A stretch of 64,000 nt of DNA, from NCBI GenBank assembly GCA_001787005.1, contig MFUV01000004.1:911-64910 (forward strand), in the 5' to 3' direction. Position 1 is the first letter of the stretch. Each line of letters begins with the position of its first letter. The notes under the pieces are model-generated. The model was not told where the DNA came from. It worked only from the letters and a program-made list of their open reading frames with translations, and searched no databases. This document shows, piece after piece, positions 17,924 through 63,682 of this stretch. Origin of the DNA: Candidatus Nomurabacteria bacterium RIFCSPLOWO2_01_FULL_39_18. GTDB lineage: Bacteria > Patescibacteriota > Minisyncoccia > Phycocordibacterales > UBA9973. A program made the position numbers and the translations under genes.

Positions 17924-17967
17924 AATTTTCCAGATAGAGCTTTAGACTCTAGATAGAGTCTAAAGCT

Positions 17968-19215
17968 CTATCTGGTTAGTATTTTTAATAATTCTTCCAG
18001 AGAAACAATTTTCCCTTTTTCTTCTGTGCGCTTTTTCAATTCAATTCCGCCTTCCTTTATACTTCGAGAAGATACAACTGCTCGATAGGGTATGCCAAGC
18101 AAGTCCGCATCGGCAAATTTCTCTCCTGGAGATATTTCTCCCCGATCGTCAAATAAAACCTCAATTTTATTCCTCTTTAAACTTTCATAGACTTTATCGG
18201 CTTCTTTTTCAATCTCTGTATCATCTCCTAGGGCAAGCAGATGGACAGCGAATGGCGCTATGGATTCGGGCCAGATAATGCCCTTATCGTCAGCAAGAAC
18301 CTCTACCACGGTGCCTAAAAGACGCCCCACGCCTATGCCATAACAACCCATCAAAACAATGTGTTTTTCGCCCTTTTCATCCACATATGACAAATCAAAT
18401 GGCTTTGAATATTTTGTTTTTAAATCAAAAATGTTTCCAACTTCAATGGCCTTTTGTTCAATTAGTTTTTCTTTTACTAAACCAAGCTGATTTAGAATTT
18501 CGTCGTTGAAAACTTCTTTATTAAGGGCAGTACCGCTAGCCTCATCAATATAAATAGTATCCTCGCCTAGGGGCGTGATGGTCTGGAATTCATGCGAATA
18601 TTTAGAGAAAGTTCCACCCGAAGCGAAAGCCATGTAAGTCAAATGGCCAATACCGACTCTGGCAAAGATAGTTTTGTAAACTTCTTTCATTTTATTATAG
18701 AATTTTTCGAAATCGTCTTTTGATGTGTGGAAGGAATACATGTCTTTCATGACAAATTCCCTACCCCGAAGTATTCCGGATTTTGCGCGAAGTTCCATTC
18801 TAAATTTATTTTGAATTTGATAAATGGAGAGGGGGAAATCTTTGTGGGAAGAAACATAATTTTTCAAAATAGGAACAACGATCTCCTCGTGAGTAGGACC
18901 CAAGGCAACAACTCTTCCGGAAGAATCAGTAACTTTGTATAAATCATCCATCGATTCCCATCTTCCAGTTTTTTCCCAATTTTCTTTCGGCTGGAAAGAA
19001 GACATTAAAACTTCTTGTCCGCCGACAGCGTTCATTTCTTCCCGAATGATATTTTCTATTTTTCGAAGCGTCCGGAGCCCTAAGGGCAAATAACTATAAA
19101 CCCCTGCCATTTCCTTATGAATAAAACCACCACGAATCAGGAGCTCGGCATTTTTTGATACTTCGTCTGCTGGCGCCTCGCGCCTCGTCTTAGTAAAAAG
19201 TTTTGATTGTCTCAT
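17968..19215 (-). CDS. proS: Prolyl-tRNA synthetase, compact form lacking the INS editing domain
   Basis: N-terminus MRQSKLF...YSYLPLGLRTLRKIENIIREEMNAVGGQEVLM is a class-II ProRS pattern. 415 aa. Confidence 0.85.
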   Translation of the reverse strand: MRQSKLFTKTRREAPADEVSKNAELLIRGGFIHKEMAGVYSYLPLGLRTLRKIENIIREEMNAVGGQEVLMSSFQPKENWEKTGRWESMDDLYKVTDSSGRVVALGPTHEEIVVPILKNYVSSHKDFPLSIYQIQNKFRMELRAKSGILRGREFVMKDMYSFHTSKDDFEKFYNKMKEVYKTIFARVGIGHLTYMAFASGGTFSKYSHEFQTITPLGEDTIYIDEASGTALNKEVFNDEILNQLGLVKEKLIEQKAIEVGNIFDLKTKYSKPFDLSYVDEKGEKHIVLMGCYGIGVGRLLGTVVEVLADDKGIIWPESIAPFAVHLLALGDDTEIEKEADKVYESLKRNKIEVLFDDRGEISPGEKFADADLLGIPYRAVVSSRSIKEGGIELKKRTEEKGKIVSLEELLKILTR

Positions 19216-19947: not shown

Positions 19948-20021
19948 TGCAATCCCGTTAGAAATTCACTATCGGGACGTATTATTTATAAGGTTAATTA
20001 TCATTAATTTCTAATGGGATG
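19948..20021. repeat. Inverted-repeat element, copy 1, ending at the rpsB start codon
   Basis: Arms atcccgttagaaat (19949-19963) and atttctaatgggATG (20007-20021). A second copy lies at 21574-21655. Confidence 0.5.
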
Positions 20022-20762
20022 CAAAAAGCAGATATTAAGAAAAAGGACGACACTATAATAGAAAAGATGTTTCGGGCTGGAGCGCACTATGGCTATTCCA
20101 AGAGCCGAAGGCACCCTTCTGTTTCGCCATATATATACGCTACAAAGAACAATGGAGACATAATCGACCTTGAAAAGACAAACATCATGCTAGAAAAAGC
20201 AGTTGATTTTGTGAAGTCTCTGGGTGTCCAAAATAAAGTCATTCTTTTGGTTGGCACAAAGCCCGAAGCCAAAGAGGTTATCAAAAATATGGCGGAATCT
20301 TTGAGTATGCCTTACGTTACTACGCGCTGGATTGGAGGTACCTTAAGTAATTTTACAGAAATAAAAAAGAGAATTACCGAACTCGAAAATTATCGCAAGA
20401 ATACCGCGGAAGGCAAACTCGATAAATACACAAAGAAAGAGCGTGTAGTTATGGCAAAGAAGATGGAGAAACTTTCAAAATATTACTCCGGTCTTATTGG
20501 CTTCAAGAAGGCCCCTGATGCATTATTTATCATTGATGGAAAGGCGGAACATATCGCTACTACCGAAGCAAGAAAAGGAAATATACCTATAATTGCCCTC
20601 TCGAATTCTGACTCAAACATTAAAGGCATAGATTACCCTGTAGTTGCCAACGATTCTGGGATACTTTCTATCAAATTTTTCGCCACGTCTCTCGCAGATG
20701 CCTATAAAGCAGGCCTGTCTGCGCAGGCGGGTCAAAACTCTGCGCCTACAAAAGAAGTCTAA
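20019..20762 (+). CDS. rpsB: 30S ribosomal protein S2
   Basis: S2 family sequence (segment HYGYSKSRRHPSVSPYIYATKNNGDIIDLEKT). Confidence 0.9.
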   Translation: MQKADIKKKDDTIIEKMFRAGAHYGYSKSRRHPSVSPYIYATKNNGDIIDLEKTNIMLEKAVDFVKSLGVQNKVILLVGTKPEAKEVIKNMAESLSMPYVTTRWIGGTLSNFTEIKKRITELENYRKNTAEGKLDKYTKKERVVMAKKMEKLSKYYSGLIGFKKAPDALFIIDGKAEHIATTEARKGNIPIIALSNSDSNIKGIDYPVVANDSGILSIKFFATSLADAYKAGLSAQAGQNSAPTKEV

Positions 20763-20766
20763 AAAT

Positions 20767-21546
20767 ATGTCCTCTCCGATAACAACTGAGTTGGTAAAGG
20801 AACTTAGAGATGCTACTGGCGTATCTGTAATGCAATGTAAGCGGGCGCTTATGGAAGCCGAGGGTGACATGAAGAAAGCATTGGCTATCTTGAAAAAGAC
20901 AAGTTCAGATATAGCAGAGAAAAAAGTTGGCCGCGAAGTCAAGGATGGAGCAGTTATGGTGAAGACAGCGAGTAAAAAAGCTGTTCTGGTGTCCCTCCAC
21001 TGTGAGACAGACTTTGTATCTAGGAATGAAGATTTTACTAATCTACTTTCTGGTTTGGCAGACCTAGCCCTCAAAGACGGAATAGAAAAAATGAAGGTGG
21101 AAGCAAGGGATATGATAAATCCTGTGATTCAAAAAACCGGAGAGAATATCCAGCTGGGTGATGTTTATGAAGTAGAGGGTGACACTATTGGAAGCTATGT
21201 ACACAACAAAAAAACAGCCGTTATCGTCAGCCTAGAGGGTGGCAATGAAGAACTTGCAAAGGATATAGCGATGCACATCACCGCCATGAAGCCAGAGTAC
21301 ATAACACCCGGAGACGTAAATGAAGACGCGCGAAAAACGATGACAGAAATTTTCCAAAAAGAAGTTGATAAAATAGACAAGCCCTCCGAGATAAAGAAAA
21401 AGATGTTGGATGGAAAAATCAGCACTTATTTCAAAGAAAAAACACTTTTGGAGCAGCCATTTATCAAGGATGGAGATATGACGGTGGGTCAATTACTTCT
21501 AAAAAACAAAGCGCAGATAAAAGGAGTGAGGCGTTATTCGATATAG
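20767..21546 (+). CDS. tsf: Elongation factor Ts
   Basis: N-terminus ITTELVKELRDATGVSVMQCKRALMEAEGDMKKA, which is the EF-Ts UBA-like domain. The start is taken at the internal ATG of the longer ORF. Confidence 0.9.
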   Translation: MSSPITTELVKELRDATGVSVMQCKRALMEAEGDMKKALAILKKTSSDIAEKKVGREVKDGAVMVKTASKKAVLVSLHCETDFVSRNEDFTNLLSGLADLALKDGIEKMKVEARDMINPVIQKTGENIQLGDVYEVEGDTIGSYVHNKKTAVIVSLEGGNEELAKDIAMHITAMKPEYITPGDVNEDARKTMTEIFQKEVDKIDKPSEIKKKMLDGKISTYFKEKTLLEQPFIKDGDMTVGQLLLKNKAQIKGVRRYSI

Positions 21547-21573
21547 ATTTAAAATAAATTATTATGTATCCCG

Positions 21574-21655
21574 TTAGAAATCATATATGTCGAAACTTCT
21601 AATTAAAAATTATATAACTACGGAAATGCAAAGCATTTCCTATTTCTAACGGGAT
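21574..21655. repeat. Inverted-repeat element, copy 2, ending at the start codon of ORF 21654
   Basis: Arms atcccgttagaaat (21574-21588) and atttctaacgggATG (21641-21656). The internal sequence is unrelated to copy 1. Confidence 0.5.
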
Positions 21656-22061
21656 GTACATCTTTTTAATCTTATTTTTTGTATCACTCATTGGTATTGC
21701 TGTAATGGTTGGACGCAAACTGACACTTGTCAGAAGCGGACAAATTGTAGAAGTTTATCATTCGCACCCATTTATATTAGACTTTGATAAAGTCAAATAT
21801 CGATCCTTTAAGCATGGCAAAAGGATTTTATATCTCATTCTTTTTATAACAATTCGATTCTATGTTAGATCTTCTAATTTTTTAAGGAATAAATATAATG
21901 AGATGAAGATTAAGCTAAAGACTCTGAATAAAAAGGGTGGGGCAAATGGAAATCTTGGAGAAAAAGTTGAGGTTTCTAAGTTTTTGAGGATAGTTTCAGA
22001 ATACAAACATAAAATAAAAGAAATTAAGCATAAAGTGCACGAGGAGGAAAAGAACTCGTAG
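21654..22061 (+). CDS. Hypothetical membrane-anchored, Lys-rich protein
   Basis: 135 aa with an N-terminal TM helix. Confidence 0.35.
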   Translation: MYIFLILFFVSLIGIAVMVGRKLTLVRSGQIVEVYHSHPFILDFDKVKYRSFKHGKRILYLILFITIRFYVRSSNFLRNKYNEMKIKLKTLNKKGGANGNLGEKVEVSKFLRIVSEYKHKIKEIKHKVHEEEKNS

Positions 22062-38521: not shown

Positions 38522-38674
38522 AAATAAAAACGCCTTTACGGCTTGTAATTACCTAATAAAAGAGATTGCATCCGATACTCAATCAATGAATCAGGGATAG
38601 CCTACTCTATTTGCACTTTTTTGTCAACTACGGCTGTGGATTGAGCGCATAAAAGTAGATTAAATTAAATAATT

Positions 38675-38708
38675 ACATAAGATTTCTGCATATGCTAGAA
38701 TCTTATGT
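38675..38708. repeat. ~34-bp palindrome (Pal1 family) between regulator P1 and rpoB
   Basis: Sequence acataagatttctgcatatgctagaatcttatgt. Related copies at 39328-39358 and 49216-49244. Confidence 0.5.
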
Positions 38709-38719
38709 ATGCCCCCAAG

Positions 38720-39325: not shown

Positions 39326-39327
39326 AT

Positions 39328-39358
39328 GTGTAAGATTATAGCATATGCGGATTTCTTA
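39328..39358. repeat. Pal1-family palindrome immediately upstream of P1
   Basis: Sequence gtaagattatagcatatgcggatttcttat. It is 27/30 identical to the reverse complement of the copy at 49216-49244. Confidence 0.5.
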
Positions 39359-39504
39359 TTCTTATCCGCAACAACTAAACTACTTTTTCTCCACAGTTTT
39401 TTGTCAAATCTAGGCTGGGGATTTATATCTCCTTTTCTATCAAGCTTTCCCTAAACAACTGGAAAATTCCCTCATTTGCTTATTATACCAAAAAAGATCT
39501 AGCC

Positions 39505-43723: not shown

Positions 43724-45702
43724 TGGAGGATTTAAAAGGAAAAAACTTTTCAAAAATAAAAGCATTCGGCTGGACGATTGTCTCTGTAACTTTGGGTATA
43801 TCGCTCGCGTCTATTGCTTTGTCATTTTTTGAGAATAATATAGATAAAATTTCAAACGAAGGAGGCAGGGCCTTGGCTGTGGAATCTATAATAAAGAATG
43901 AAAAACCTAAATATTTTTATATTAACCAAAATTCCTACGTAGAACCCAAGGTCTCGGCAAAAGCTTACTTGGTTGGCGATTTAAATACCGGTGAAGTAAT
44001 CTTGGCAAAGAATCAAGACCAGAAACTGCCAATCGCTTCAGTATCGAAGCTAATGACCGCGTATGTGGCAAAAGAAATAGTAAAAGGAGACGAAGAAGCC
44101 AAAGCCAGCCAGAGAGCGCTCTTGACCTATGGGGGTAATGGAGGGTTCCGCGTTGGAGAAAAAATAAAAATATCTGATCTTCTCTATCCCCTGCTTTTGG
44201 AGTCTAGCAATGACGCGGCAGAGATAATCGCGGAATATTTCGAACGGGACAGTTTCATCAGAAAGATGAACCAGGAAGCGGAAAATTTGAATATGTCTTC
44301 GACTTTTTTCGAAGACCCAAGTGGGCTCTCCGAAAACAATCAATCCACCCCGGCAGACTTATTTAAATTCACCGGATTTATAAAACAAGCAACGCCAGAA
44401 CTGCTCCAAATCACCACCAAAAGAAATTATTCCACCAAGAAACACAGCTGGCCAAGCACCAACCAATTTTTGCATGATTCCGGATATATGGGCGGTAAAA
44501 GCGGCTACACCGACCCTGCCCTGCAAACTGTCGTTTCTCTTTTCTCCTTGCCCCTTTCAGAATCAAGCACCAGACCTATCGGGATAGTGCTCCTTCGTAG
44601 TTTGGACCGGCGCAAGGATGTGGAAACTATTCTGAAATATTTGAAAAAAAATGTGTATTACGGAGGAGAGGCGGACGCGAGCACCGACTGGGTGAGAGAG
44701 AAGGTCGGGGCGCCCGACATTCGAGAGCCAGATTATGTGACGATGACTTTCGGGGGTGATATAATGCTCGACCGCGGAGTGAAAAATTCAGTGATAAAAA
44801 ATTTCAACAATGACTACTCTGCGCTCTTTGGCGAGCTAGAGATGCTGAAAGATTCAGACATCGTTTTTGCAAACCTAGAGGGCACAGCATCGGACGTGGG
44901 TACTGACATGCACAATTTATATTCTTTCCATATGGACCCGGCTGTCATCCCCGCTCTTTCTGGCGCGGGAATAAATATCTTATCGGTTGCCAACAATCAT
45001 ATGGGGGACTGGGGACGCGCTTCATATGAAGATACTCTCTCTCGTTTACGGGAAAATGAAATATTCTATACAGGAGGAGGAATAAATAGAGAAGAAGCCG
45101 AACGGCCGACCATTATTGAAAAATACGGAATGAAAATAGGATTCTTGGGGTTCTCGGACGTAGGTCCGAACTTCATGAAAGCGGGTGAAGACCAGGCAGG
45201 ATTACTCCTCGCCAGCAATCCACGCTTCGAAGAAATAATAAAAAATGCTTCTTCAAAGGTGGACTATTTAGTGATTTCATTCCATTTCGGTGAAGAGTAT
45301 CAGGCAAAGCATAATACGCGACAGGAAGAATTAGCGCACAAAGCTGTGGACAACGGAGCGAAACTCATCATCGGAAGTCATCCCCATGTAGTGGAAGACA
45401 CTGAAGTTTATATCCCAAAAGATTGCACTCAAAGTTCGTGCGTAGGCTATATCGCCTATTCACTAGGGAACTTTATCTTCGACCAAACATTTAGATCTGA
45501 CACCATGCAAGGCATGCTCCTCAATGTCAGGCTCAGCAATAATGGACAAATGACGGTGAGAAAAGATACGGTAAAATTAAATTCCGCTTTCCAGCCGAAT
45601 CAGATAATCAAAGGCAAAGAGGAGAAAATAAATTTTCAGGAGCATACGGAGGCGAGCATACGGAGGCGTTGCCTCCGTAGTTTCGTAGTTTGCAAGCCTT
45701 AA
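43723..45702 (+). CDS. Fusion of a D-Ala-D-Ala carboxypeptidase (peptidase S11) and a CapA/PGA_cap metallophosphatase
   Basis: N-terminal TM helix. SxxK active site ASVSKLMT in the N-terminal half. Motifs DYVTMTFGGDIMLDRGV and VFANLEG in the C-terminal half. The last ~19 residues are encoded by a REP-like hairpin. Confidence 0.65.
   Translation: MEDLKGKNFSKIKAFGWTIVSVTLGISLASIALSFFENNIDKISNEGGRALAVESIIKNEKPKYFYINQNSYVEPKVSAKAYLVGDLNTGEVILAKNQDQKLPIASVSKLMTAYVAKEIVKGDEEAKASQRALLTYGGNGGFRVGEKIKISDLLYPLLLESSNDAAEIIAEYFERDSFIRKMNQEAENLNMSSTFFEDPSGLSENNQSTPADLFKFTGFIKQATPELLQITTKRNYSTKKHSWPSTNQFLHDSGYMGGKSGYTDPALQTVVSLFSLPLSESSTRPIGIVLLRSLDRRKDVETILKYLKKNVYYGGEADASTDWVREKVGAPDIREPDYVTMTFGGDIMLDRGVKNSVIKNFNNDYSALFGELEMLKDSDIVFANLEGTASDVGTDMHNLYSFHMDPAVIPALSGAGINILSVANNHMGDWGRASYEDTLSRLRENEIFYTGGGINREEAERPTIIEKYGMKIGFLGFSDVGPNFMKAGEDQAGLLLASNPRFEEIIKNASSKVDYLVISFHFGEEYQAKHNTRQEELAHKAVDNGAKLIIGSHPHVVEDTEVYIPKDCTQSSCVGYIAYSLGNFIFDQTFRSDTMQGMLLNVRLSNNGQMTVRKDTVKLNSAFQPNQIIKGKEEKINFQEHTEASIRRRCLRSFVVCKP
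45642..45690. repeat. REP-like hairpin R1
   Basis: Sequence gcatacggaggcgagcatacggaggcgttgcctccgtag. The core palindrome is ACGGAGGCGTTGCCTCCGT, with a tandem half-duplication. Confidence 0.55.
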
Positions 45703-46785: not shown

Positions 46786-46836
46786 TGCCTCTGTGCGACT
46801 ACGGAGGCGCGACTACGGAGGCGTTGCCTCTGTTTA
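46786..46836. repeat. REP-like hairpin R2, upstream of the RAYT gene
   Basis: Sequence ttgcctctgtgcgactacggaggcgcgactacggaggcgttgcctctgt. Confidence 0.55.
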
Positions 46837-49181: not shown

Positions 49182-49215
49182 ATGAAATATATTAACATAT
49201 TACTTTTTAATTACC

Positions 49216-49244
49216 CAATACGTAAGAAATCCGCATATGCGAAA
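49216..49244. repeat. Pal1-family palindrome, third copy (intergenic)
   Basis: Sequence gtaagaaatccgcATATgcgaaaatcttac. Confidence 0.45.
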
Positions 49245-49259
49245 ATCTTACACATCAAT

Positions 49260-51395
49260 TTACTTCGCAATCTGGGTTGCTTCTTCAAATTTAATGGAGA
49301 GGAGTTTGGAGGCGCCGTTACTGCCCACTGTTACGCCATAGAGTATGTCGGCGCGGGACATCGTTTCGCGATTGTGGGTAACGACGATAAGCTGGGAATG
49401 TTTTGAAAGTTTCTCTAGCATGTCTCCGTATTTGCGTGAATTCGCCTCATCGAGTGCAGCGTCTGTCTCGTCGAGCACTAAGAAGGGCGGCGGGTTAACC
49501 TGTGACATGGCAAAGAGTAGCGCGATGGATGTGAGCGACCTCTCTCCGCCCGAGAGCGCATGAAGTTCTTTGACCTTTTTGTGCGGAAGTGAAACATTAA
49601 TTTCTATCCCTTGCTCGGGGGCGGTCTCTTCTTCATTTTCTATTTCCACTTCCTCTTCGTCTAAATCAGATGGAGCGTTTCTCTTCCTCTTATTTTCCAC
49701 AACAATCTTCAGGGACCCGTGTCCCCCGCCAAACATTAGGGTAAAAAATTCTTGAAACTCCACATTTATTTTCTTGATGCCTTCTTGGAATTCCATGTCA
49801 ATCTTTTCTTTTAAATCCAATATAAGCTTCTGTAGCAAATCAATGCTTTTAGTTAAATCCTCCATCTCTTTCGCCAAAAACCCGTCTCTCTCTGAAACTT
49901 CTTTAAATTCTTTCATAACTTCCGCTCCACTGCCGAGGCCTGCATCCTCTAGTTTTATTTTTAACCGTTCAATCTTTTTCCTCAATTCTTCCTGAACACT
50001 CTCTTCGCCCCCATTTTCTATCTTGTGATTTTTATATGACAAAATTTCTTCCCCCACAAGCGCAATGCCCTCTTTTATCTCTCGTTCAAAAGCTTCATTT
50101 CTGCTTCGTAAATTTCCTTCTTTAATGTTTATGAGTTCTAGCTGGGAAGTTAGTTCTTGGTGCTTAACTTTCCAAGTAAATTTCTCTCGTTCAAGATCAC
50201 GCAGAGTTTCCATTTCTTTATCAATCGCTTGTTTTAAGCTTTCTGCCGATTCTGCTCCCCTCACCTCTTCCACTTCTAGATTTTTCATCCCGGCGACAAC
50301 TTCCTGTTGTGAGTTTTTTAATTCTTCTAATTCCTTCTCTCCCTGTTGTCGCTTTTCTATTTGCTCCGGGTGCATCTCTTTGATTTCATTACCACAAAGC
50401 GGACATCTGCCAGAAAGTTTTACCTTATTTTCTTTTGATTCTAGCATCCCCTCTATTCGTCCGAGTTTTCTTTCCATTTCATTTTTGAGCGCGCGAATTT
50501 CGTTGATCTTTTTCTCAATAGCTCGAAGCTCTTCTATTTTTCGATTGCCTCCCCTAGAATTTTCATCTTCAGTGAGAGAAATTTTTTTGGCAACACTGGC
50601 AAGCTCGACAGAAATTTTATTTTTCTCTTTTGTTAAATTAGACTTTTCTTTTTCTAGGTAAACACTTTCTTTCTTCAAATATTCACGATAAAGCCCTGCG
50701 AGCTCTGCCTGCATTTCCTTGGCCTTTTCAAATTTCTCTACTTGTTTCTTAAGAAAATTAAGATGCGGAGCATTCTCTCGGCGAAGCATCGTCACCTCTT
50801 TCATATTTTCTTCTGTGCGTTCGAGCTTCCTTTCAGATTCTTTTATCTTGTATTGATAAATTTTGAGCCCCAATGCGTCTTCCACCATCTCGCGTCTTTC
50901 TTTCATATTTGCATTCAAAATTCTGTCCGCCTCGCCCTGCGAAATGATGTGGTGCCCAGAAGAGCCAATGTTGACTGAAGCCAGGAGATTGTGAATATCT
51001 TTCAGCCTGACTTCTCCCCCATTTAAACTATATTTATTGAGTCCATCTGGAAAAACCTCGCGAGAAATGCTGATGGTGTCGTAATTCAAGTTTACATTTT
51101 CTCCTTCACTATTTGAAAGTTTGAAAACTTTGTCAGAATTATTGAAATAAATTTTAACTATTGCATGGTTTCCCTTGGGCAAACTCTTTGATCCCTTGAA
51201 AATTAAATCCGAGCCAGTTTTGCCCCGCATCGACTTCATCGACTGCTCACCTAGGACATAGCGTATTGCCTCTACTACATTTGATTTCCCGGAGCCATTT
51301 GGCCCCACAATAGAAACTATGGGATTATTGAACTCTAAAAGACTTTTCTGGTGGAAAGATTTAAAGCCGTTTATTTCCAGGGTTTTCAGTCGCAT
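49260..51395 (-). CDS. smc: Miniaturised SMC-family ATPase with a Rad50-type CxxC hook in place of a hinge
   Basis: N-terminal Walker A GPNGSGKSN with an SMC_N-like sequence. C-terminal LSGGERSL and PFLVLDETDAALD. A central RCPLCGNEI lies within predicted coiled coil. Only 711 aa. Positioned directly after rnc, matching the common rnc-smc synteny. Confidence 0.75.
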   Translation of the reverse strand: MRLKTLEINGFKSFHQKSLLEFNNPIVSIVGPNGSGKSNVVEAIRYVLGEQSMKSMRGKTGSDLIFKGSKSLPKGNHAIVKIYFNNSDKVFKLSNSEGENVNLNYDTISISREVFPDGLNKYSLNGGEVRLKDIHNLLASVNIGSSGHHIISQGEADRILNANMKERREMVEDALGLKIYQYKIKESERKLERTEENMKEVTMLRRENAPHLNFLKKQVEKFEKAKEMQAELAGLYREYLKKESVYLEKEKSNLTKEKNKISVELASVAKKISLTEDENSRGGNRKIEELRAIEKKINEIRALKNEMERKLGRIEGMLESKENKVKLSGRCPLCGNEIKEMHPEQIEKRQQGEKELEELKNSQQEVVAGMKNLEVEEVRGAESAESLKQAIDKEMETLRDLEREKFTWKVKHQELTSQLELINIKEGNLRSRNEAFEREIKEGIALVGEEILSYKNHKIENGGEESVQEELRKKIERLKIKLEDAGLGSGAEVMKEFKEVSERDGFLAKEMEDLTKSIDLLQKLILDLKEKIDMEFQEGIKKINVEFQEFFTLMFGGGHGSLKIVVENKRKRNAPSDLDEEEVEIENEEETAPEQGIEINVSLPHKKVKELHALSGGERSLTSIALLFAMSQVNPPPFLVLDETDAALDEANSRKYGDMLEKLSKHSQLIVVTHNRETMSRADILYGVTVGSNGASKLLSIKFEEATQIAK

Positions 51396-55078: not shown

Positions 55079-55591
55079 ATGTTTAAAGAACAACAGCCAC
55101 CAACAAACCCAAACGAACAATTCAGTCAGTTAATGAACCTACTCGCTGATAGACCCGACTTAAAACAAAAAATGGTTCCTGATATTCTTTTAATTCAAGA
55201 ATTAGCGCCAGAACTAGAGAGAAAAGTTTTACAGATAGCAAGTGGCTTTTACGGAAAGATAAACTGTAATGGGACATCAGTCTATTTAATAGGATTGACA
55301 GAAAAACCTATGAGGGTAAGCCCGATTAAAGAAATGATCGAATACTTAAAATCGATGACGCGAAATAAAGAATTGTTACCAGGAAGTTTGGTCTGCTATA
55401 CCGCCCATCCAGGTCTTGGAGAAGTATATGTACCTCATTCCGGAATTTTATTTTTATCAAAAAGTGGTGAACAATTAGTGCTTCATAAACCTAGTTACGA
55501 AGATCCTCTAAAAATTGAACCCATCGAAAAAGCATTTGACTTAAAAAATGTAAGAGGTGCTGGAGAATTGGAATCTTATTCTTTAAAATAA
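55079..55591 (+). CDS. Hypothetical protein
   Basis: 170-aa ORF with no recognised motif. Confidence 0.3.
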   Translation: MFKEQQPPTNPNEQFSQLMNLLADRPDLKQKMVPDILLIQELAPELERKVLQIASGFYGKINCNGTSVYLIGLTEKPMRVSPIKEMIEYLKSMTRNKELLPGSLVCYTAHPGLGEVYVPHSGILFLSKSGEQLVLHKPSYEDPLKIEPIEKAFDLKNVRGAGELESYSLK

Positions 55592-55610: not shown

Positions 55611-55652
55611 CCATGTGTTTACTGTACTAACGACCGTTAGTTAAGTAAACAT
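55611..55652. repeat. ~34-bp palindrome (Pal2), copy 1, downstream of regulator P2
   Basis: Sequence gtttactgtactaacgaccgttagttaagtaaac plus a conserved tail attatataaatt. A direct repeat of 56254-56299. Confidence 0.5.
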
Positions 55653-55668
55653 TATATAAATTAAAATA

Positions 55669-56247
55669 TCAAAAATTTTCCATCTTTTTTAATGTACCCG
55701 TTTTCCCTATTTCAAAGATTTCAACAAATTCTATTATTTTCAAAAGTTCTAAATCTAAGATAAATTCGTGAGGAATTTTAACTTTTCCAATCCAAACGCT
55801 TTTGTGAACCATTCCAAACTGAAGATTTTTAACAACCTCCCTAAGCCAATTGCGCTTTCGGCGAAGTTTTTCCGGAATATCAAAACTTATGATAACTAAA
55901 CCTCTCTGATTTTCTGTTTGATAATGCCGGTCAGGCAGGTTGTTTTTTAAATCCAAAATTTTCTTCCTACCCGCGTTAGAAATCGTAAGTTTATTCTTCA
56001 CTTCCTTTATAAGCCCATCATGTTTGAGTTTAGATATAAATACTTGTAGTCGTCTTCTTCTTTTTCTTAAATCCTCTTCATTATATTTTCTGAATTCAGA
56101 AACTCGCTGGCACTTTCGGTATTCATAATCAATTTTATTCATACTCGCACCATAACCACTGGCCAATACAGCCTCAAAGAAGTCGATCTGACTGATAACA
56201 CCATCTTTAAGTATCTCAAGCGCTTTTAGTAAAATTTTTCCTCTCAT
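55669..56247 (-). CDS. Winged-HTH + PaaX_C-like protein, paralogue P2
   Basis: Segment RGLVIISFDIPEKLRRKRNWLREVVKNLQFGMVHKSVWIG. Confidence 0.45.
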   Translation of the reverse strand: MRGKILLKALEILKDGVISQIDFFEAVLASGYGASMNKIDYEYRKCQRVSEFRKYNEEDLRKRRRRLQVFISKLKHDGLIKEVKNKLTISNAGRKKILDLKNNLPDRHYQTENQRGLVIISFDIPEKLRRKRNWLREVVKNLQFGMVHKSVWIGKVKIPHEFILDLELLKIIEFVEIFEIGKTGTLKKMENF

Positions 56248-56253
56248 ACTTAA

Positions 56254-56299
56254 AGTTTACCATACTGACGACCGTTAGTATAGTAAACATATAAAATTA
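56254..56299. repeat. Pal2, copy 2, upstream of P2 and overlapping the gyrB stop
   Basis: Sequence gtttaccatactgacgaccgttagtatagtaaacatataaaatt. Confidence 0.5.
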
Positions 56300-58430: not shown

Positions 58431-60317
58431 TTACCTCACTTGCCAAGCTTCATTTCCCTTAATTTTATTAGATATTTTGGCCATAATTTCGTTTATTTCT
58501 GTGTCTGTTAGAGTGCGATTATAAGACTGAAAAACCAGACGAAAGGCGTAAGAAATTTGACTGTCTTTTTTGAACTCGTCGAATAAATCAGGGCCCTTAA
58601 TTAGGAGTTCTCCCGCGTTTTCTTTTATAATTTTTTGAACTTTTGAACTTTCAACTGAAGCGGGCACCCATACAGCAATGTCTCGCGCGATGAATGGGTA
58701 CAATGACCACATTTGAAATTTTTCTGAATAAGAATTTTCTTTAGAAGAGACTTGGGAGCGCGTCGGCGCGAGCACGAGGAATTTTTCAGCAGAAAAATAT
58801 CCGTGCTCTTCTGAAGAAGAATTCTTAGAAAGAAAATCATCTAAACTTGTTTCTATTATTTTTTCTTTTTCATTGTACACAACATGCATTTCTTCTCCAT
58901 TTTTTTTAAACACAGTTCCTATTTCGAAAATTTTAATTTCATTGAAGTCAAGCAATAAAGCATTCAGTTTATTTAATTTTAAACTTTCCTTAAGTCCATC
59001 AGTCAAATTCGTCCTTAAAAATTTCTTGTCTGAAGCACTTTGCATCACCTCCACTTCCCCCTTGTCTTGGAAGACGTATGTCATCACTTCAGAGTAACCC
59101 TCATCTAATAATTTATTTCTGGCGAAAGCTATTTTGGCGTAAGTTTCGTTAACTTTCGGCTTAAAATCTATCTTGGGCATTATCGGCTTTACTCTGTCAT
59201 ACCCTAAAATTCTACCTATCTCTTCCGCCATATCCTCTTCCATAACTAGATCAAGCCGCATCGCTGGCACAGTAATTGTGAACTTGGAGGTCTTGCCTCC
59301 AAGTGGAGGCAAGACCTCCAAGTTGTACTCAATATTGTATCTCTTAAAAATATCTTCTATCTCTTTTGCGGAAACGACTAAGCCTAAAATTTTAGAAATT
59401 TTCTCCGTTGAAAAAGAAAGTTCTCTCTCTTCTTGTTTTTTTGGATAAATATCCACAACATCCTCAAAAATAGCTTCGGGGCACATTTCCGCGATTAGCG
59501 CAGAAAGTTCGCGCATACCGTATTCTGCCATTGTCGGTGACAAATCGTTCTCAAATCTCTTGCGCGCGTCAGTAAAAATGTTTAGGGCTTGGGCGGTTTT
59601 GCGCACGCTAGTCGGATCGAAATTAGCACATTCTAGAATTATATCCGTTGTATCTTTATTCAATTCCGCATATTGCCCCCCTTTTATCCCCGCAATATCC
59701 AGAGAATTTCCAAAATCGTCAGCAATTACCATCATGGTTTCATTCATTATTTTTTCCCCTCCGCCAAGCAGAGTTATCTTTTCCCCTGCTTTAGCATTTC
59801 GTACTTTTAGTTTTAAATCTTTAACTTTTTTCAAATCAAAAACATGCGCTGGTTGGCCGCAATTAAACATTGTGAGGTTTGTGGCATCCACGATATTGTT
59901 TATGCTTCTCTGCCCGATTGATTCTAAATGCTTCACTACCCATTCTGGCGATGGGCCAATTTTAATATTCCTGACGACTCTGCCCATGTATCGGCGGCAG
60001 TTTGGACTTTCAATTGTTTTTACTAACTTCGTCGGCTTGGATTCTGGAATTTTGTATTTAGGCGTTGGGTCAATATATGAAATATTTAAAAGTGAGGCAA
60101 GCTCGCGGGCTATACCTTGATGGGAAAGCAGGTCATGCGCGCGGTTTGGTAAAATTTTTATATCAAAAATAAAATCACCACCCCCAGCCCCCTCCTCCAC
60201 AAGGAGGGGAGTTACACTTTCTACCTCCGCAACATGGTAAGTTATAATATCCGCCAGTTTTTCTGCAGAAGGAACATCGGGTATATACCATTTAAGCCAA
60301 TTGTAGGAAATTAGCAT
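58431..60317 (-). CDS. pheT: Phenylalanyl-tRNA synthetase beta subunit, compact, with two in-frame repeat insertions
   Basis: B3/4 domain, B5 domain and a C-terminal FDX-ACB-like domain. 628 aa. The N-terminal insertion VTPLLVEEGAGGGDF comes from GC-rich element D. The insertion EEHGYFSAEKFLVLA comes from the AT-type hairpin at 58770-58808. Confidence 0.85.
   Translation of the reverse strand: MLISYNWLKWYIPDVPSAEKLADIITYHVAEVESVTPLLVEEGAGGGDFIFDIKILPNRAHDLLSHQGIARELASLLNISYIDPTPKYKIPESKPTKLVKTIESPNCRRYMGRVVRNIKIGPSPEWVVKHLESIGQRSINNIVDATNLTMFNCGQPAHVFDLKKVKDLKLKVRNAKAGEKITLLGGGEKIMNETMMVIADDFGNSLDIAGIKGGQYAELNKDTTDIILECANFDPTSVRKTAQALNIFTDARKRFENDLSPTMAEYGMRELSALIAEMCPEAIFEDVVDIYPKKQEERELSFSTEKISKILGLVVSAKEIEDIFKRYNIEYNLEVLPPLGGKTSKFTITVPAMRLDLVMEEDMAEEIGRILGYDRVKPIMPKIDFKPKVNETYAKIAFARNKLLDEGYSEVMTYVFQDKGEVEVMQSASDKKFLRTNLTDGLKESLKLNKLNALLLDFNEIKIFEIGTVFKKNGEEMHVVYNEKEKIIETSLDDFLSKNSSSEEHGYFSAEKFLVLAPTRSQVSSKENSYSEKFQMWSLYPFIARDIAVWVPASVESSKVQKIIKENAGELLIKGPDLFDEFKKDSQISYAFRLVFQSYNRTLTDTEINEIMAKISNKIKGNEAWQVR
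58770..58808. repeat. AT-type hairpin element, copy 2, in-frame in pheT
   Basis: The sequence gagcacgaggaatttttcagcagaaaaatatccgtgctc closely matches 16007-16045. Confidence 0.5.
60176..60212. repeat. GC-rich palindromic element, copy D, in-frame near the pheT N-terminus
   Basis: Hairpin cccctcctcc-acaa-ggaggggag. Confidence 0.45.
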
Positions 60318-62432: not shown

Positions 62433-62623
62433 GAAATGTGACCCATTCGAGACACTCAGGCTCGAATGAGGTCATAGTGATTGCAAAGAACCATGAGAAA
62501 AACTTACTATATCTTGATTGCTCTATTCCTGTCTTTCATCATCATCGGTCTTTATATCGGCTGGCTTGATAATGGACCAGGGTTCTTTTAGTGATCTTGC
62601 ATGGATTCTCGATAAAGTTAATA

Positions 62624-62659
62624 TTGTTAGAAATTCTGCGATAGCAGAAAATCTAACAA
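62624..62659. repeat. ~36-bp palindrome (Pal3), copy 1, downstream of regulator P3
   Basis: Sequence attgttagaaattctgcgatagcagaaaatctaaca. Second copy at 63172-63207. A further flanking direct repeat ggctYgataatggRYcaggg lies at 62567-62586 and 63222-63241. Confidence 0.5.
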
Positions 62660-62671
62660 GTAAAAAAATCA

Positions 62672-63160
62672 TTATTTTTTGAAATTATAACCCCTCGCAA
62701 GTTTAAAGGTTTTTAAATCTTCTCTCAAGCCGATACTTTTAATGTAATCCAAAAATTCTTTCGGTAGGGGTGAAGGACCCACCCAAACACTTTTCTGTAT
62801 CATGGCATAATTAAATTTCTTGAGATGCCAGCGCAACCATTCCCTTTCCGCTTTCTTTGGTTCTGGAACATCAAACATAACTATCAGGTTCTTTGGCGCA
62901 TCTTTGTCGAATTGAAAATCAAATTGTTGCAGAGAGTCAATTTTTCTTTTAATATAATTTATACCTTTCGGGGTAATGTACAGTCCGTCGCAATCCCCCA
63001 CAAGTTTTTCTTTTATGAGATGCGACATAGTTCCCCGCAATGAGCTCTGCGAATAATTTTTAAATCTTGGTAAACCCAAAAGGTTTACCCGACTTCCTTT
63101 ATAGTTGAGCGACACGCTACTAAGCTCTTTTAGAATGTCGTATATAATACTCATGCACAA
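62672..63160 (-). CDS. Winged-HTH + PaaX_C-like protein, paralogue P3
   Basis: Segment NLIVMFDVPEPKKAEREWLRWHLKKFNYAMIQKSVWVGPSPLP. Confidence 0.45.
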   Translation of the reverse strand: MCMSIIYDILKELSSVSLNYKGSRVNLLGLPRFKNYSQSSLRGTMSHLIKEKLVGDCDGLYITPKGINYIKRKIDSLQQFDFQFDKDAPKNLIVMFDVPEPKKAEREWLRWHLKKFNYAMIQKSVWVGPSPLPKEFLDYIKSIGLREDLKTFKLARGYNFKK

Positions 63161-63171
63161 AGTATAGCAAA

Positions 63172-63207
63172 TTGTTAGGAACTCTGCTATCGCAGAGAAT
63201 CTAACAC
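63172..63207. repeat. Pal3, copy 2, upstream of P3
   Basis: Sequence attgttaggaactctgctatcgcagagaatctaaca. Confidence 0.5.
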
Positions 63208-63235
63208 TATGAATAAAAGCTGGCTCGATAATGGG

Positions 63236-63682
63236 TCAGGGATTTTTATTTTGAGTCTTGGAAAAAATTATTAAAGTTTTTTCAAAATTGTCTGGAACAT
63301 CTACTATTTCATAAGAAAAACCATCTGGTAGTACAAACTTTCCATCGTTAATGAATTTTTCTACTGTTGCTTTATCAACTTCAGTTGATAGTAGAATTTT
63401 GCCGTTCTCTTTTAATAACTTCTGACAGATCTTAAATGTATCTGGGTTAATTATAAGTTCTTCACTTAAACAAAACATTGTTATTAAATCCGACATTTCT
63501 TCACCTTCTAGTTTAGTAAAATCAACCTCAAGAATAGCGGGAGATTCATTGAAATCTATTTCTTGTATACTTTTAAGAGGGACCCCCTCTTTTTTGAATA
63601 AATCTAGTGCTTGTTGATTTTTGATAGAAACTTTCTCAATACCAAGCCATTTTGCAATACTCGCAAACAGTCGCTTTGCCAT
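63236..63682 (-). CDS. Hypothetical protein
   Basis: 148-aa ORF with no recognised motif. Confidence 0.3.
   Translation of the reverse strand: MAKRLFASIAKWLGIEKVSIKNQQALDLFKKEGVPLKSIQEIDFNESPAILEVDFTKLEGEEMSDLITMFCLSEELIINPDTFKICQKLLKENGKILLSTEVDKATVEKFINDGKFVLPDGFSYEIVDVPDNFEKTLIIFSKTQNKNP

Follow-up and report, generated by a model that had tools for sequence, protein, structure and literature searches.

The 64,000-nt stretch of the Candidatus Nomurabacteria bacterium RIFCSPLOWO2_01_FULL_39_18 genome analyzed here (contig MFUV01000004.1; hereafter, the window) encodes three small paralogous proteins, P1, P2 and P3, and each of their genes is bracketed by two copies of a palindrome of its own. 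The same layout recurs in relatives fetched by protein similarity. The best explanation, which we consider probable, is that these are orthogonal units, each made of an autorepressor and its operator. We refer to the family as self-bracketed mini-PaaX. These are proposed PaaX-type autorepressors of a major uncultivated lineage that most likely repress their own leaderless promoters, and their self-bracketing is both unusual and conserved. Literature searches on PaaX with Cas2-like, candidate phyla radiation (CPR) or Patescibacteria returned no description of the family or of this layout.

Palindrome pairs in the window and across the family

The three genes had been recognized in a first-pass annotation of the window and are all present, on the minus strand. 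For P3, the ATG at 63154 is more likely to be the start than the TTG at 63160 used there.

P1, 38720..39325, minus strand: 201 aa, basic; hydrophobic (membrane-anchor-like) N-terminal helix, putative winged-helix region and PaaX_M/Cas2-like domain
P2, 55669..56247, minus strand: 192 aa, basic; putative winged-helix region and PaaX_M/Cas2-like domain; directly after gyrB
P3, 62672..63154, minus strand: 160 aa, basic; short putative winged-helix region and PaaX_M/Cas2-like domain

Each gene lies between an upstream (U) and a downstream (D) palindrome copy of 34–38 bp, and the bracketing that had been claimed was seen for all three.

Pal1-U, ~39327-39363, upstream of P1: TAAGA-N5-GCATATGC-N5-TCTTA type; contains the predicted P1 extended -10 box
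Pal1-D, 38674-38709, downstream of P1: 10 nt past the P1 stop and ~150 nt upstream of the rpoB start (38521); 83% self-complementary
Pal2-U, ~56254-56289, upstream of P2: from 7 nt past the gyrB stop to 7 nt before the P2 ATG; right arm promoter-adapted
Pal2-D, 55616-55651, downstream of P2: 17 nt past the P2 stop, between P2 and a convergent 170-aa gene (55079-55591)
Pal3-U, 63172-63207, upstream of P3: stops just ahead of the predicted -10 box, ~17 nt short of the ATG
Pal3-D, 62624-62659, downstream of P3: 12 nt past the P3 stop

The pair comparison itself places the upstream copies slightly more narrowly for Pal1 (39331-39359) and Pal2 (56255-56288). The two copies are 86% identical for both Pal2 and Pal3, and those of Pal1 agree at 86% when one is inverted and at 72% when they are compared directly. 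The whole window holds just 11 palindromes of comparable score, and the copies number three for Pal1, two for Pal2 and two for Pal3. Compared with the earlier coordinates, the first Pal2 copy, once placed at 55611-55644, is shifted by ~5 nt, and Pal3 is unchanged. The core TTCTGC-n4-GCAGAA, which had been assigned to Pal1 and Pal3 alike, is exact in Pal3 only; Pal1 reads TTCTGCATATGCTAGAA. The upstream sites of P1 orthologues read GCATATGCTA[T/G]AATCTTA, followed by 3–5 nt and the ATG.

Two further repeats touch the P3 unit. A 29-nt direct repeat, 83% identical, stands just outside the Pal3 copies (62560-62588 and 63219-63247), its right-hand copy overlapping the last codons and stop of a 148-aa open reading frame (ORF) upstream of P3; it resembles a target duplication and has no counterpart at 60 other family loci. 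A 9-mer of Pal3, GTTAGAAAT, which occurs five times in the window versus 1.2 expected, is also found in a long-range inverted repeat, CCCGTTAGAAAT ... ATTTCTAACGGG (21567-21581 and 21642-21656, arms ~60 nt apart). This half-site had been placed in the rpsB leader; the inverted repeat (21567-21656) directly follows tsf (EF-Ts, 20644-21546), and another GTTAGAAAT at 19957 may be the one that was meant.

Across the family, 77 loci were fetched by protein similarity alone, and the upstream flank of each family gene (-250 to +45 of the start) was compared with its downstream flank (-20 to +220 of the stop) for a shared repeat, with 400 other ORFs from the same loci as controls. The best shared-repeat score had a median of 23.5 for family genes (n = 86) versus 10 for controls (95th percentile, 13.5). 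Scores above 13.5 were reached by 80 of the 86 family genes, and 64 had a clear palindrome pair. The shared repeat was always a palindrome of 30–47 nt with a common plan, in which outer arms (TGTxxAC ... GTxxACA) ~23–27 bp apart, center to center, enclose variable inner spacers and a central 8-mer (e.g., ACGGCCGT, ACGATCGT, CCGATCGG, GCATATGC and GCGATAGC).

The sites diverge together with the proteins. Identity between downstream sites was at background (0.42–0.45) for proteins less than 45% identical, and rose to 0.60 at 45–60% and 0.75 at 60–80% protein identity (Spearman 0.44). The upstream and downstream copies of one gene were 0.86 identical, closer than the orthologous sites of other genomes. 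Thus, the two sites change together, and together with the protein. Paralogues within one genome differ in their arms (TTTAC or TATAC vs CTTAC vs GTCTAC in MFUG01, CALRHR01, MFVU01 and MFTQ01); with an own site sequence for each paralogue, several orthogonal units coexist in one small genome. Co-diverged regulator/operator sets, one of the readings first offered for the three genes, is the best supported, with binding itself being predicted. Two other comparisons were dropped. By eye, flips of asymmetric centers (GATA/TATC, GACC/GGTC) gave about as many mirrored as direct pairs and no orientation signal, and single changes from GATC or GGCC suffice to produce them. A generic scan of all long palindromes in the loci was too mixed with ordinary terminators for statistics.

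Most family genes have a TAnnnT hexamer, often after TGn (extended -10), that ends 6–9 nt before the ATG. This leaves no room for a leader, so the mRNAs are probably leaderless.

P1 predicted extended -10 box, 39343->39335, minus strand: TGCTATAAT, 9 nt before ATG 39325
P2 predicted extended -10 box, 56262->56254, minus strand: TGGTAAACT, 6 nt before ATG 56247
P3 predicted extended -10 box, 63169->63161, minus strand: TGCTATACT, 6 nt before ATG 63154

The box lies inside the upstream palindrome (P1 and P2 types) or just past its end (P3 type; a P3 orthologue has the same TGGTATACT arrangement, in locus L009), and for P2 an alternative TACTAT box has a TTGACA 16 nt upstream of it. Among 20 P2 orthologues, both copies share one consensus except at two positions. 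Position +18, the last T of the -10 box, is T in 19 of 19 upstream copies and A, the symmetric base, in 13 of 20 downstream copies; position +11, in the TG of the extended -10, is G in 14 of 19 upstream copies and A in 14 of 20 downstream copies. Promoter features are absent from the downstream copy and its symmetry is kept. Judged by these substitutions, the upstream copy is a palindrome bent into a promoter, an anatomy that fits a putative repressor occluding its own promoter. In 20 of 61 loci, the region that holds the upstream copy is a divergent promoter region.

A box of the same kind, TGTTAATAT, also precedes a NUDIX operon of the window (49189-49197, 7 nt before the ATG), so extended -10 promoters that give leaderless mRNAs may be a common feature of this genome and not of the family alone.

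Domain build and distribution of the proteins

P1, P2 and P3 are 29–34% identical to each other and have the motifs FD[IV]P...R..LR...K...KS.W in common, in agreement with the proposed paralogy, and all have an isoelectric point of ~9.8. The N-terminal helix ascribed to P1 corresponds to a hydrophobic 19-mer at residues 23–41 (Kyte-Doolittle 2.69). Such a helix was present in 91 of 119 homology-search matches, which is about the number of P1-like ones among them (many are P1 orthologues at 75–84% identity), and in none of 119 P2-like proteins.

All three proteins match PF20803 ("PaaX protein central Cas2-like domain") above the Pfam threshold (E-values of 1.8e-19 for P1 and 2.5e-13 for P3), which supports a build from a putative winged helix and a PaaX-derived domain. 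PaaX_C (PF08223) had no match in any of them even at E ≤ 1, and their C-termini lie only ~10–25 residues past the Cas2-like domain; the C-terminal pattern that was first likened to PaaX_C therefore belongs to the PaaX middle domain. Against the full-length PaaX equivalog TIGR02277, P1 scored 22.4 bits (cut-off 264.55), and P2 and P3 had no match. Scores against the cas2 model TIGR01573 (cut-off 24.5) were 24.8 bits for P3, 19.1 for P2 and 15.0 for P1, and matches to the Pfam Cas2 model were weak (23.6 and 22.5 versus a cut-off of 23.8). The best structural matches of a predicted P2 model were E. coli PaaX and Cas2. PaaX and Cas2/VapD had been posed as alternatives; the structure comparison gave one fold, and since PF20803 is the PaaX middle domain and itself Cas2-like, the two alternatives are the same. 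Scans with Pfam, NCBIfam and PADLOC gave PaaX_M and Cas2 matches only, with no HUH/tyrosine transposase or known strand-transfer domain, and a PHROGs comparison gave nothing meaningful. Sequence searches of the PDB with a single protein and with a profile retrieved nothing relevant, and the relationship was visible only to fold comparison and Pfam.

PaaX is the phenylacetyl-CoA-responsive repressor of paa genes in E. coli and Pseudomonas. E. coli PaaX has the operator TGATTC-N27-GAATCA and represses its own Px promoter (PMC9493321). The mini-PaaX proteins resemble it in having a putative N-terminal winged helix followed by the Cas2-like middle domain PF20803, which in PaaX makes the dimer, and PaaX (PDB 8A39 and 3L09) and the PaaX-like Rv0674 (3KFW) are the best structural matches to the P2 model. 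Wide half-site spacing is also common to both, and the overlap of family sites with the -10 box fits the kind of self-repression described for PaaX. However, PaaX has ~310 aa and a PaaX_C ligand domain, whereas family members have ~190 aa and lack PaaX_C. Family genes neighbor trmD, rpoB, gyrB, pheST, rhodanese, SMC and NUDIX genes, with no paa genes nearby. Unlike PaaX, they also follow a rule of a second site after the stop, were found here in Patescibacteria only, and occur as several paralogues per genome.

The likeness to Cas2 and VapD lies in a beta1 motif ending in Asp (FDIP in the family, YDI in Cas2), in a KSVW/QxSVF-type motif and in the weak Cas2 model matches, whereas the family domain is fused to a putative winged helix. 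The repeats differ as well, being two copies ~600 bp apart around the gene itself rather than an array. A connection to CRISPR was dropped, because the window contains no repeat array and neither cas1 nor other cas genes were found among the neighbors examined.

A profile search of 1.84 billion representative proteins detected 5,206 family clusters (50% identity) at E ≤ 1e-3 and 2,881 at the stricter limit of E ≤ 1e-10; nearly all members have lengths of 160–235 aa. Nearly all genome records with relatives are labeled as Patescibacteria lineages (Nomura-, Paceibacterota, Wolfe-, Azam-, Jorgensen-, Kaiser-, Vogel-, Campbell-, Doudnabacteria and others), and the remainder carry only generic "bacterium" labels. 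At least five paralogues occur in single genomes (e.g., MFUG01). No relatives were detected on 2.9 million viral contigs, and a phage or mobile-element origin of the family was rejected; PHROGs were uninformative in this respect.

Downstream and solo copies and the competing explanations

Family members, basic proteins of 160–200 aa, are built like a PaaX repressor ended after its middle domain, with a putative winged helix and the Cas2-like domain through which PaaX dimerizes. We propose that a dimer would bind one cognate 34–40 bp palindrome as double-stranded DNA, with the two winged helices reading the wide-spaced outer arms (TGTxxAC ... GTxxACA) and the Cas2-like core placed over the central CG/GC-rich 8-mer. 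On the upstream copy, the protein would cover its own extended -10 promoter and turn the gene off (negative autoregulation). In the least certain step, the downstream copy would most likely serve as a boundary formed by bound protein, which would block the passage of RNA polymerase out of or into the unit (roadblock) and/or tighten repression through a ~600-bp loop made with the upstream site.

Auxiliary operators and looping are known from lambda CI, with OR and OL flanking cI, and from LacI with O1 and O2. The family is similar in that a second cognate site lies some hundred bp from the promoter-proximal one, and differs in that this second site stands at the repressor gene's own stop, family-wide, and in that some members have sites at the 3' ends of unrelated genes. 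For LacI, roadblocks in which the DNA-bound repressor halts elongating RNA polymerase are established (PMC4132739, PMC10310618).

The downstream copy begins 0–50 nt past the stop in most loci, sometimes overlapping it. The next gene downstream is convergent in 27 of 61 loci, including that of P2 in the window, so the downstream copy is not an operator of the neighboring gene. P1 and its downstream palindrome do sit directly upstream of rpoB, as first described, and the same order, with a P1-like gene ahead of rpoB, was found in at least 10 of 12 related loci. Candidate roles of the 3' copy are those of a roadblock, a loop anchor or a cassette edge.

A further copy, absent from the first-pass annotation, was detected away from the family genes.

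Third, solo Pal1 copy, 49219-49255: 84% identity to the reverse complement of Pal1-U; 4 nt past the stop of an SMC-like gene (49260-51395), with its end just ahead of the -35 predicted for a leaderless NUDIX/NTPase_I-T/Maf operon (ATG 49181)

In relatives, the solo copy near these genes is placed elsewhere, after NUDIX in L133 and after Maf in L111 and L116. Around family genes, 6 extra cognate copies were counted in ~1 Mb of flanks, located directly after a stop or between convergent genes (L012:2571, L052:14655 and L067:9026). For the P2 and P3 types, the palindromes are essentially confined to their own genes, with 43 gene-linked sites versus 1 solo site (P2 type) and 6 versus 2 (P3 type) in 1.91 Mb of sequence.

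An exact-pattern scan of metagenome contigs for the P1 type (TAAGA-N5-GCATATGC-N5-TCTTA) gave at least 116 stretches; the P1-type numbers that follow are those among the matches listed. They comprise 64 distinct sites, 16 adjoining a family gene and 48 solo. The solo sites are located between convergent (14), tandem (21) or divergent (1) genes, within genes (4) or at contig edges (8), at a median of 20 nt past a stop and ~100 nt from the nearest start. They follow housekeeping genes of diverse kinds, among them ychF (5 of 44), recA, comM, pheT, rmuC, maf, rplS and trmD, and one follows a 5S rRNA gene. Perfect complementarity, including the variable spacers, was seen in 23 of 47, with more than 8 spacer variants, and the predicted hairpins have a median of -19 kcal/mol. 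A T-rich tail (≥5 T in the 8 nt past the stem, on either strand) was found in only 9 of 46, and canonical intrinsic terminators were rejected for this reason; ordinary GC-rich terminators occur elsewhere in the window. The idea that solo sites are relics of gene loss, left by recombination between upstream and downstream copies, was also rejected for P1, given that P1 is still present and that solo sites come closer to perfection than the copies flanking the gene.

A related arrangement was noted at L085:5679-6020, where two Pal1-like palindromes lie ~300 bp apart downstream of a 5S rRNA gene. The enclosed stretch has no ORF, contains an 18-nt internal direct repeat (GTAGCTAGCCGCCAGAAC) and has no Rfam match; it may be a small RNA gene bracketed like the family genes.

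Several of these observations weigh against autorepressor/operator units, and our interpretation is weakest on what the downstream and solo sites do. As P2- and P3-type sites are nearly absent elsewhere, such a regulator would control no gene but its own. The placement of solo P1-type sites is the distribution of terminators or REP elements (see below), not of operators, and their full spacer complementarity hints at selection for a hairpin or cruciform, or at a copying mechanism. The Cas2-type aspartate of FD[IV]P is invariant in the alignments, and would not obviously be needed by a purely structural dimerization module. Lastly, gyrB and a convergent thrS-like gene abut in L093 with a 7-nt gap and no palindrome, whereas the orthologous pair in L002 (55% identity for the thrS-like gene) encloses the entire U-P2-D unit; the whole P2 unit can thus be present or absent.

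This last comparison is what would be expected if palindrome, gene and palindrome formed a mobile or insertable cassette, inserted or excised whole with the palindromes as recombination ends, which is one of the possibilities raised in the first-pass annotation. The units are indeed very compact, with 4–10 nt between the upstream copy and the ATG (P1 and P2 types) and 0–25 nt between the stop and the downstream copy. At least five paralogous units are found in genomes such as MFUG01, P2-like genes have at least 10 different upstream neighbors, and the 29-nt direct repeat lies just outside the P3 unit. We nevertheless regard cassettes as very unlikely. The repeat at P3 is the only one of its kind, the score for direct repeats outside the palindromes having a median of 7.5 in both the 61 loci and the controls; target-site duplication is thus not general. 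Recombinase and transposase domains are absent from the proteins and relatives from the viral contigs, and, leaving aside the P1-type pattern scan, loci that lack a unit showed no cognate solo palindrome. Several neighborhoods are also old and stable, that of P1 and rpoB as stated above and that of gyrB and P2 in 8 of 20 orthologous loci at only 60–69% protein identity.

Repetitive extragenic palindromic (REP) elements and REP-associated tyrosine transposases (RAYTs; together, "REPtrons") provide another parallel. There too, a gene is framed by two copies of its own 20–40 bp palindrome, element class and protein co-diverge, extragenic solo copies occur near 3' ends and several orthogonal pairs exist per genome (PMC2817692). 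By analogy, the palindromes would be hairpin-forming extragenic elements kept or spread at gene 3' ends and handled by the family protein via its winged helix and nuclease-type Cas2-like domain, with two master copies framing the gene. The excess of convergent over divergent solo sites, the site after a 5S rRNA gene, the shifting position of the solo copy around NUDIX and Maf, and the invariant catalytic-type aspartate all speak for this. On balance it appears improbable to us, given that the protein is not an IS200/IS605-type tyrosine transposase and has no HUH/tyrosine transposase or known strand-transfer domain, that the palindromes lack a GTAG/CGTC head, and that the flanking copies are direct or orientation-neutral and, except for Pal1, not clearly inverted. 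The upstream copy, moreover, doubles as a promoter/operator with evident anatomy. Palindrome copies appear to come in units, not hundreds, in the window and the 1.9 Mb of sequence (three of Pal1 in 64 kb, 6 extra copies in 1 Mb and one solo P2-type site in 1.9 Mb), versus more than 100 per genome for REPs. Ubiquitous REP-type repeats without enrichment next to the genes had been named as a finding that would speak against regulator/operator sets; for the P1 type this applies in part, as solo copies do occur at 3' ends, although the copy number looks low and the enrichment at family genes is strong.

The 3' placement could also reflect an element that acts at the RNA level, with transcribed hairpins (terminators lacking a U-tract, stabilizers or RNase targets) bound or cut by the Cas2-like domain. 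Some Cas2 and VapD proteins are reported RNases. Downstream and solo copies, 0–50 nt past stops, would lie within 3' untranslated regions, their predicted hairpins are stable (-13 to -18 kcal/mol for the downstream copies of the window, in addition to those of the solo sites), and the spacers of solo sites covary. The stems, however, carry no RNA-hairpin signature: mismatches on the sense strand show no wobble bias and no excess of G.T over A.C (51 vs 57 in downstream copies, 51 vs 63 in upstream copies). Upstream copies fall outside the predicted leaderless transcript, and often in divergent promoter regions, as counted above. T-rich tails are scarce, the conserved sequence blocks exceed what pairing needs, and PaaX, the nearest characterized relative, binds double-stranded DNA. 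An RNA-level role therefore seems to us no more probable than a cassette.

A broader alternative, unlikely in our estimation though far from negligible, is that the proteins are not ordinary regulators but form a Cas2-derived, sequence-specific gene-boundary system of the CPR. They would mark hairpin-forming palindromes at the ends of transcription units, their own first, and would terminate or insulate transcription, or maintain and spread the elements in a REP/RAYT-like manner without a transposase. Membrane-anchored P1 would then fasten such ends to the membrane, among them the region upstream of rpoB and the rRNA operon's end. Within the autorepressor/operator interpretation, which remains the probable one, a boundary made by bound protein is the most likely function of the downstream and solo sites and is favored among the candidates considered.

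Other repeats in the window and implications for Patescibacteria

The window contains other palindromes and repeats apart from those of the three units. A perfect 44-nt palindrome, AACTTGGAGGTCTTGCCTCCAAGTGGAGGCAAGACCTCCAAGTT, lies at 59281-59324 inside pheT (58431-60317, minus strand), in frame, and encodes NLEVLPPLGGKTSKF. Near-identical in-frame palindromes with compensatory changes are found in relatives in gyrB (two genomes), gyrA, an SMC-like gene and another ORF (L004:695-736, L040:8488-8531, L014:17411-17454, L077:16339-16378 and L125:~4598). It looks like a small palindromic element whose insertions fall in coding regions, and brings Rickettsia palindromic elements to mind. Another perfect palindrome, 46 nt long (CCAGATAGAGCTTTAGACTCTAGATAGAGTCTAAAGCTCTATCTGG, 17930-17975), runs across the stop codon of a gene for a class II aminoacyl-tRNA synthetase (17968-19215), with its other end 6 nt short of the mreB start (17923); it is placed like the upstream copies of the family and has another sequence plan, and no cognate protein was identified for it. 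Two short tandem duplications at 45640-45668 and 46795-46823, ~1.1 kb apart, have a unit ending in ACGGAGGC, a 14-nt period and 2.1 copies each.

Patescibacteria represent a large share of bacterial diversity, and have tiny genomes in which gene regulation is almost unstudied. Given its 5,206 clusters and several paralogues per genome, the mini-PaaX family may be among their main sequence-specific DNA-binding proteins, and would represent a second life of the Cas2 fold outside CRISPR. The analysis yields testable pairs of protein and site together with predicted leaderless promoters, and raises the question of what purpose a cognate site at the stop codon serves. The naturally orthogonal repressor/operator pairs could supply parts for synthetic biology. 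Should the sites spread, they would constitute a transposase-free, REP-like system; should the 3' sites be boundaries that depend on the protein, they would represent a dedicated way in which bacteria punctuate transcription units.

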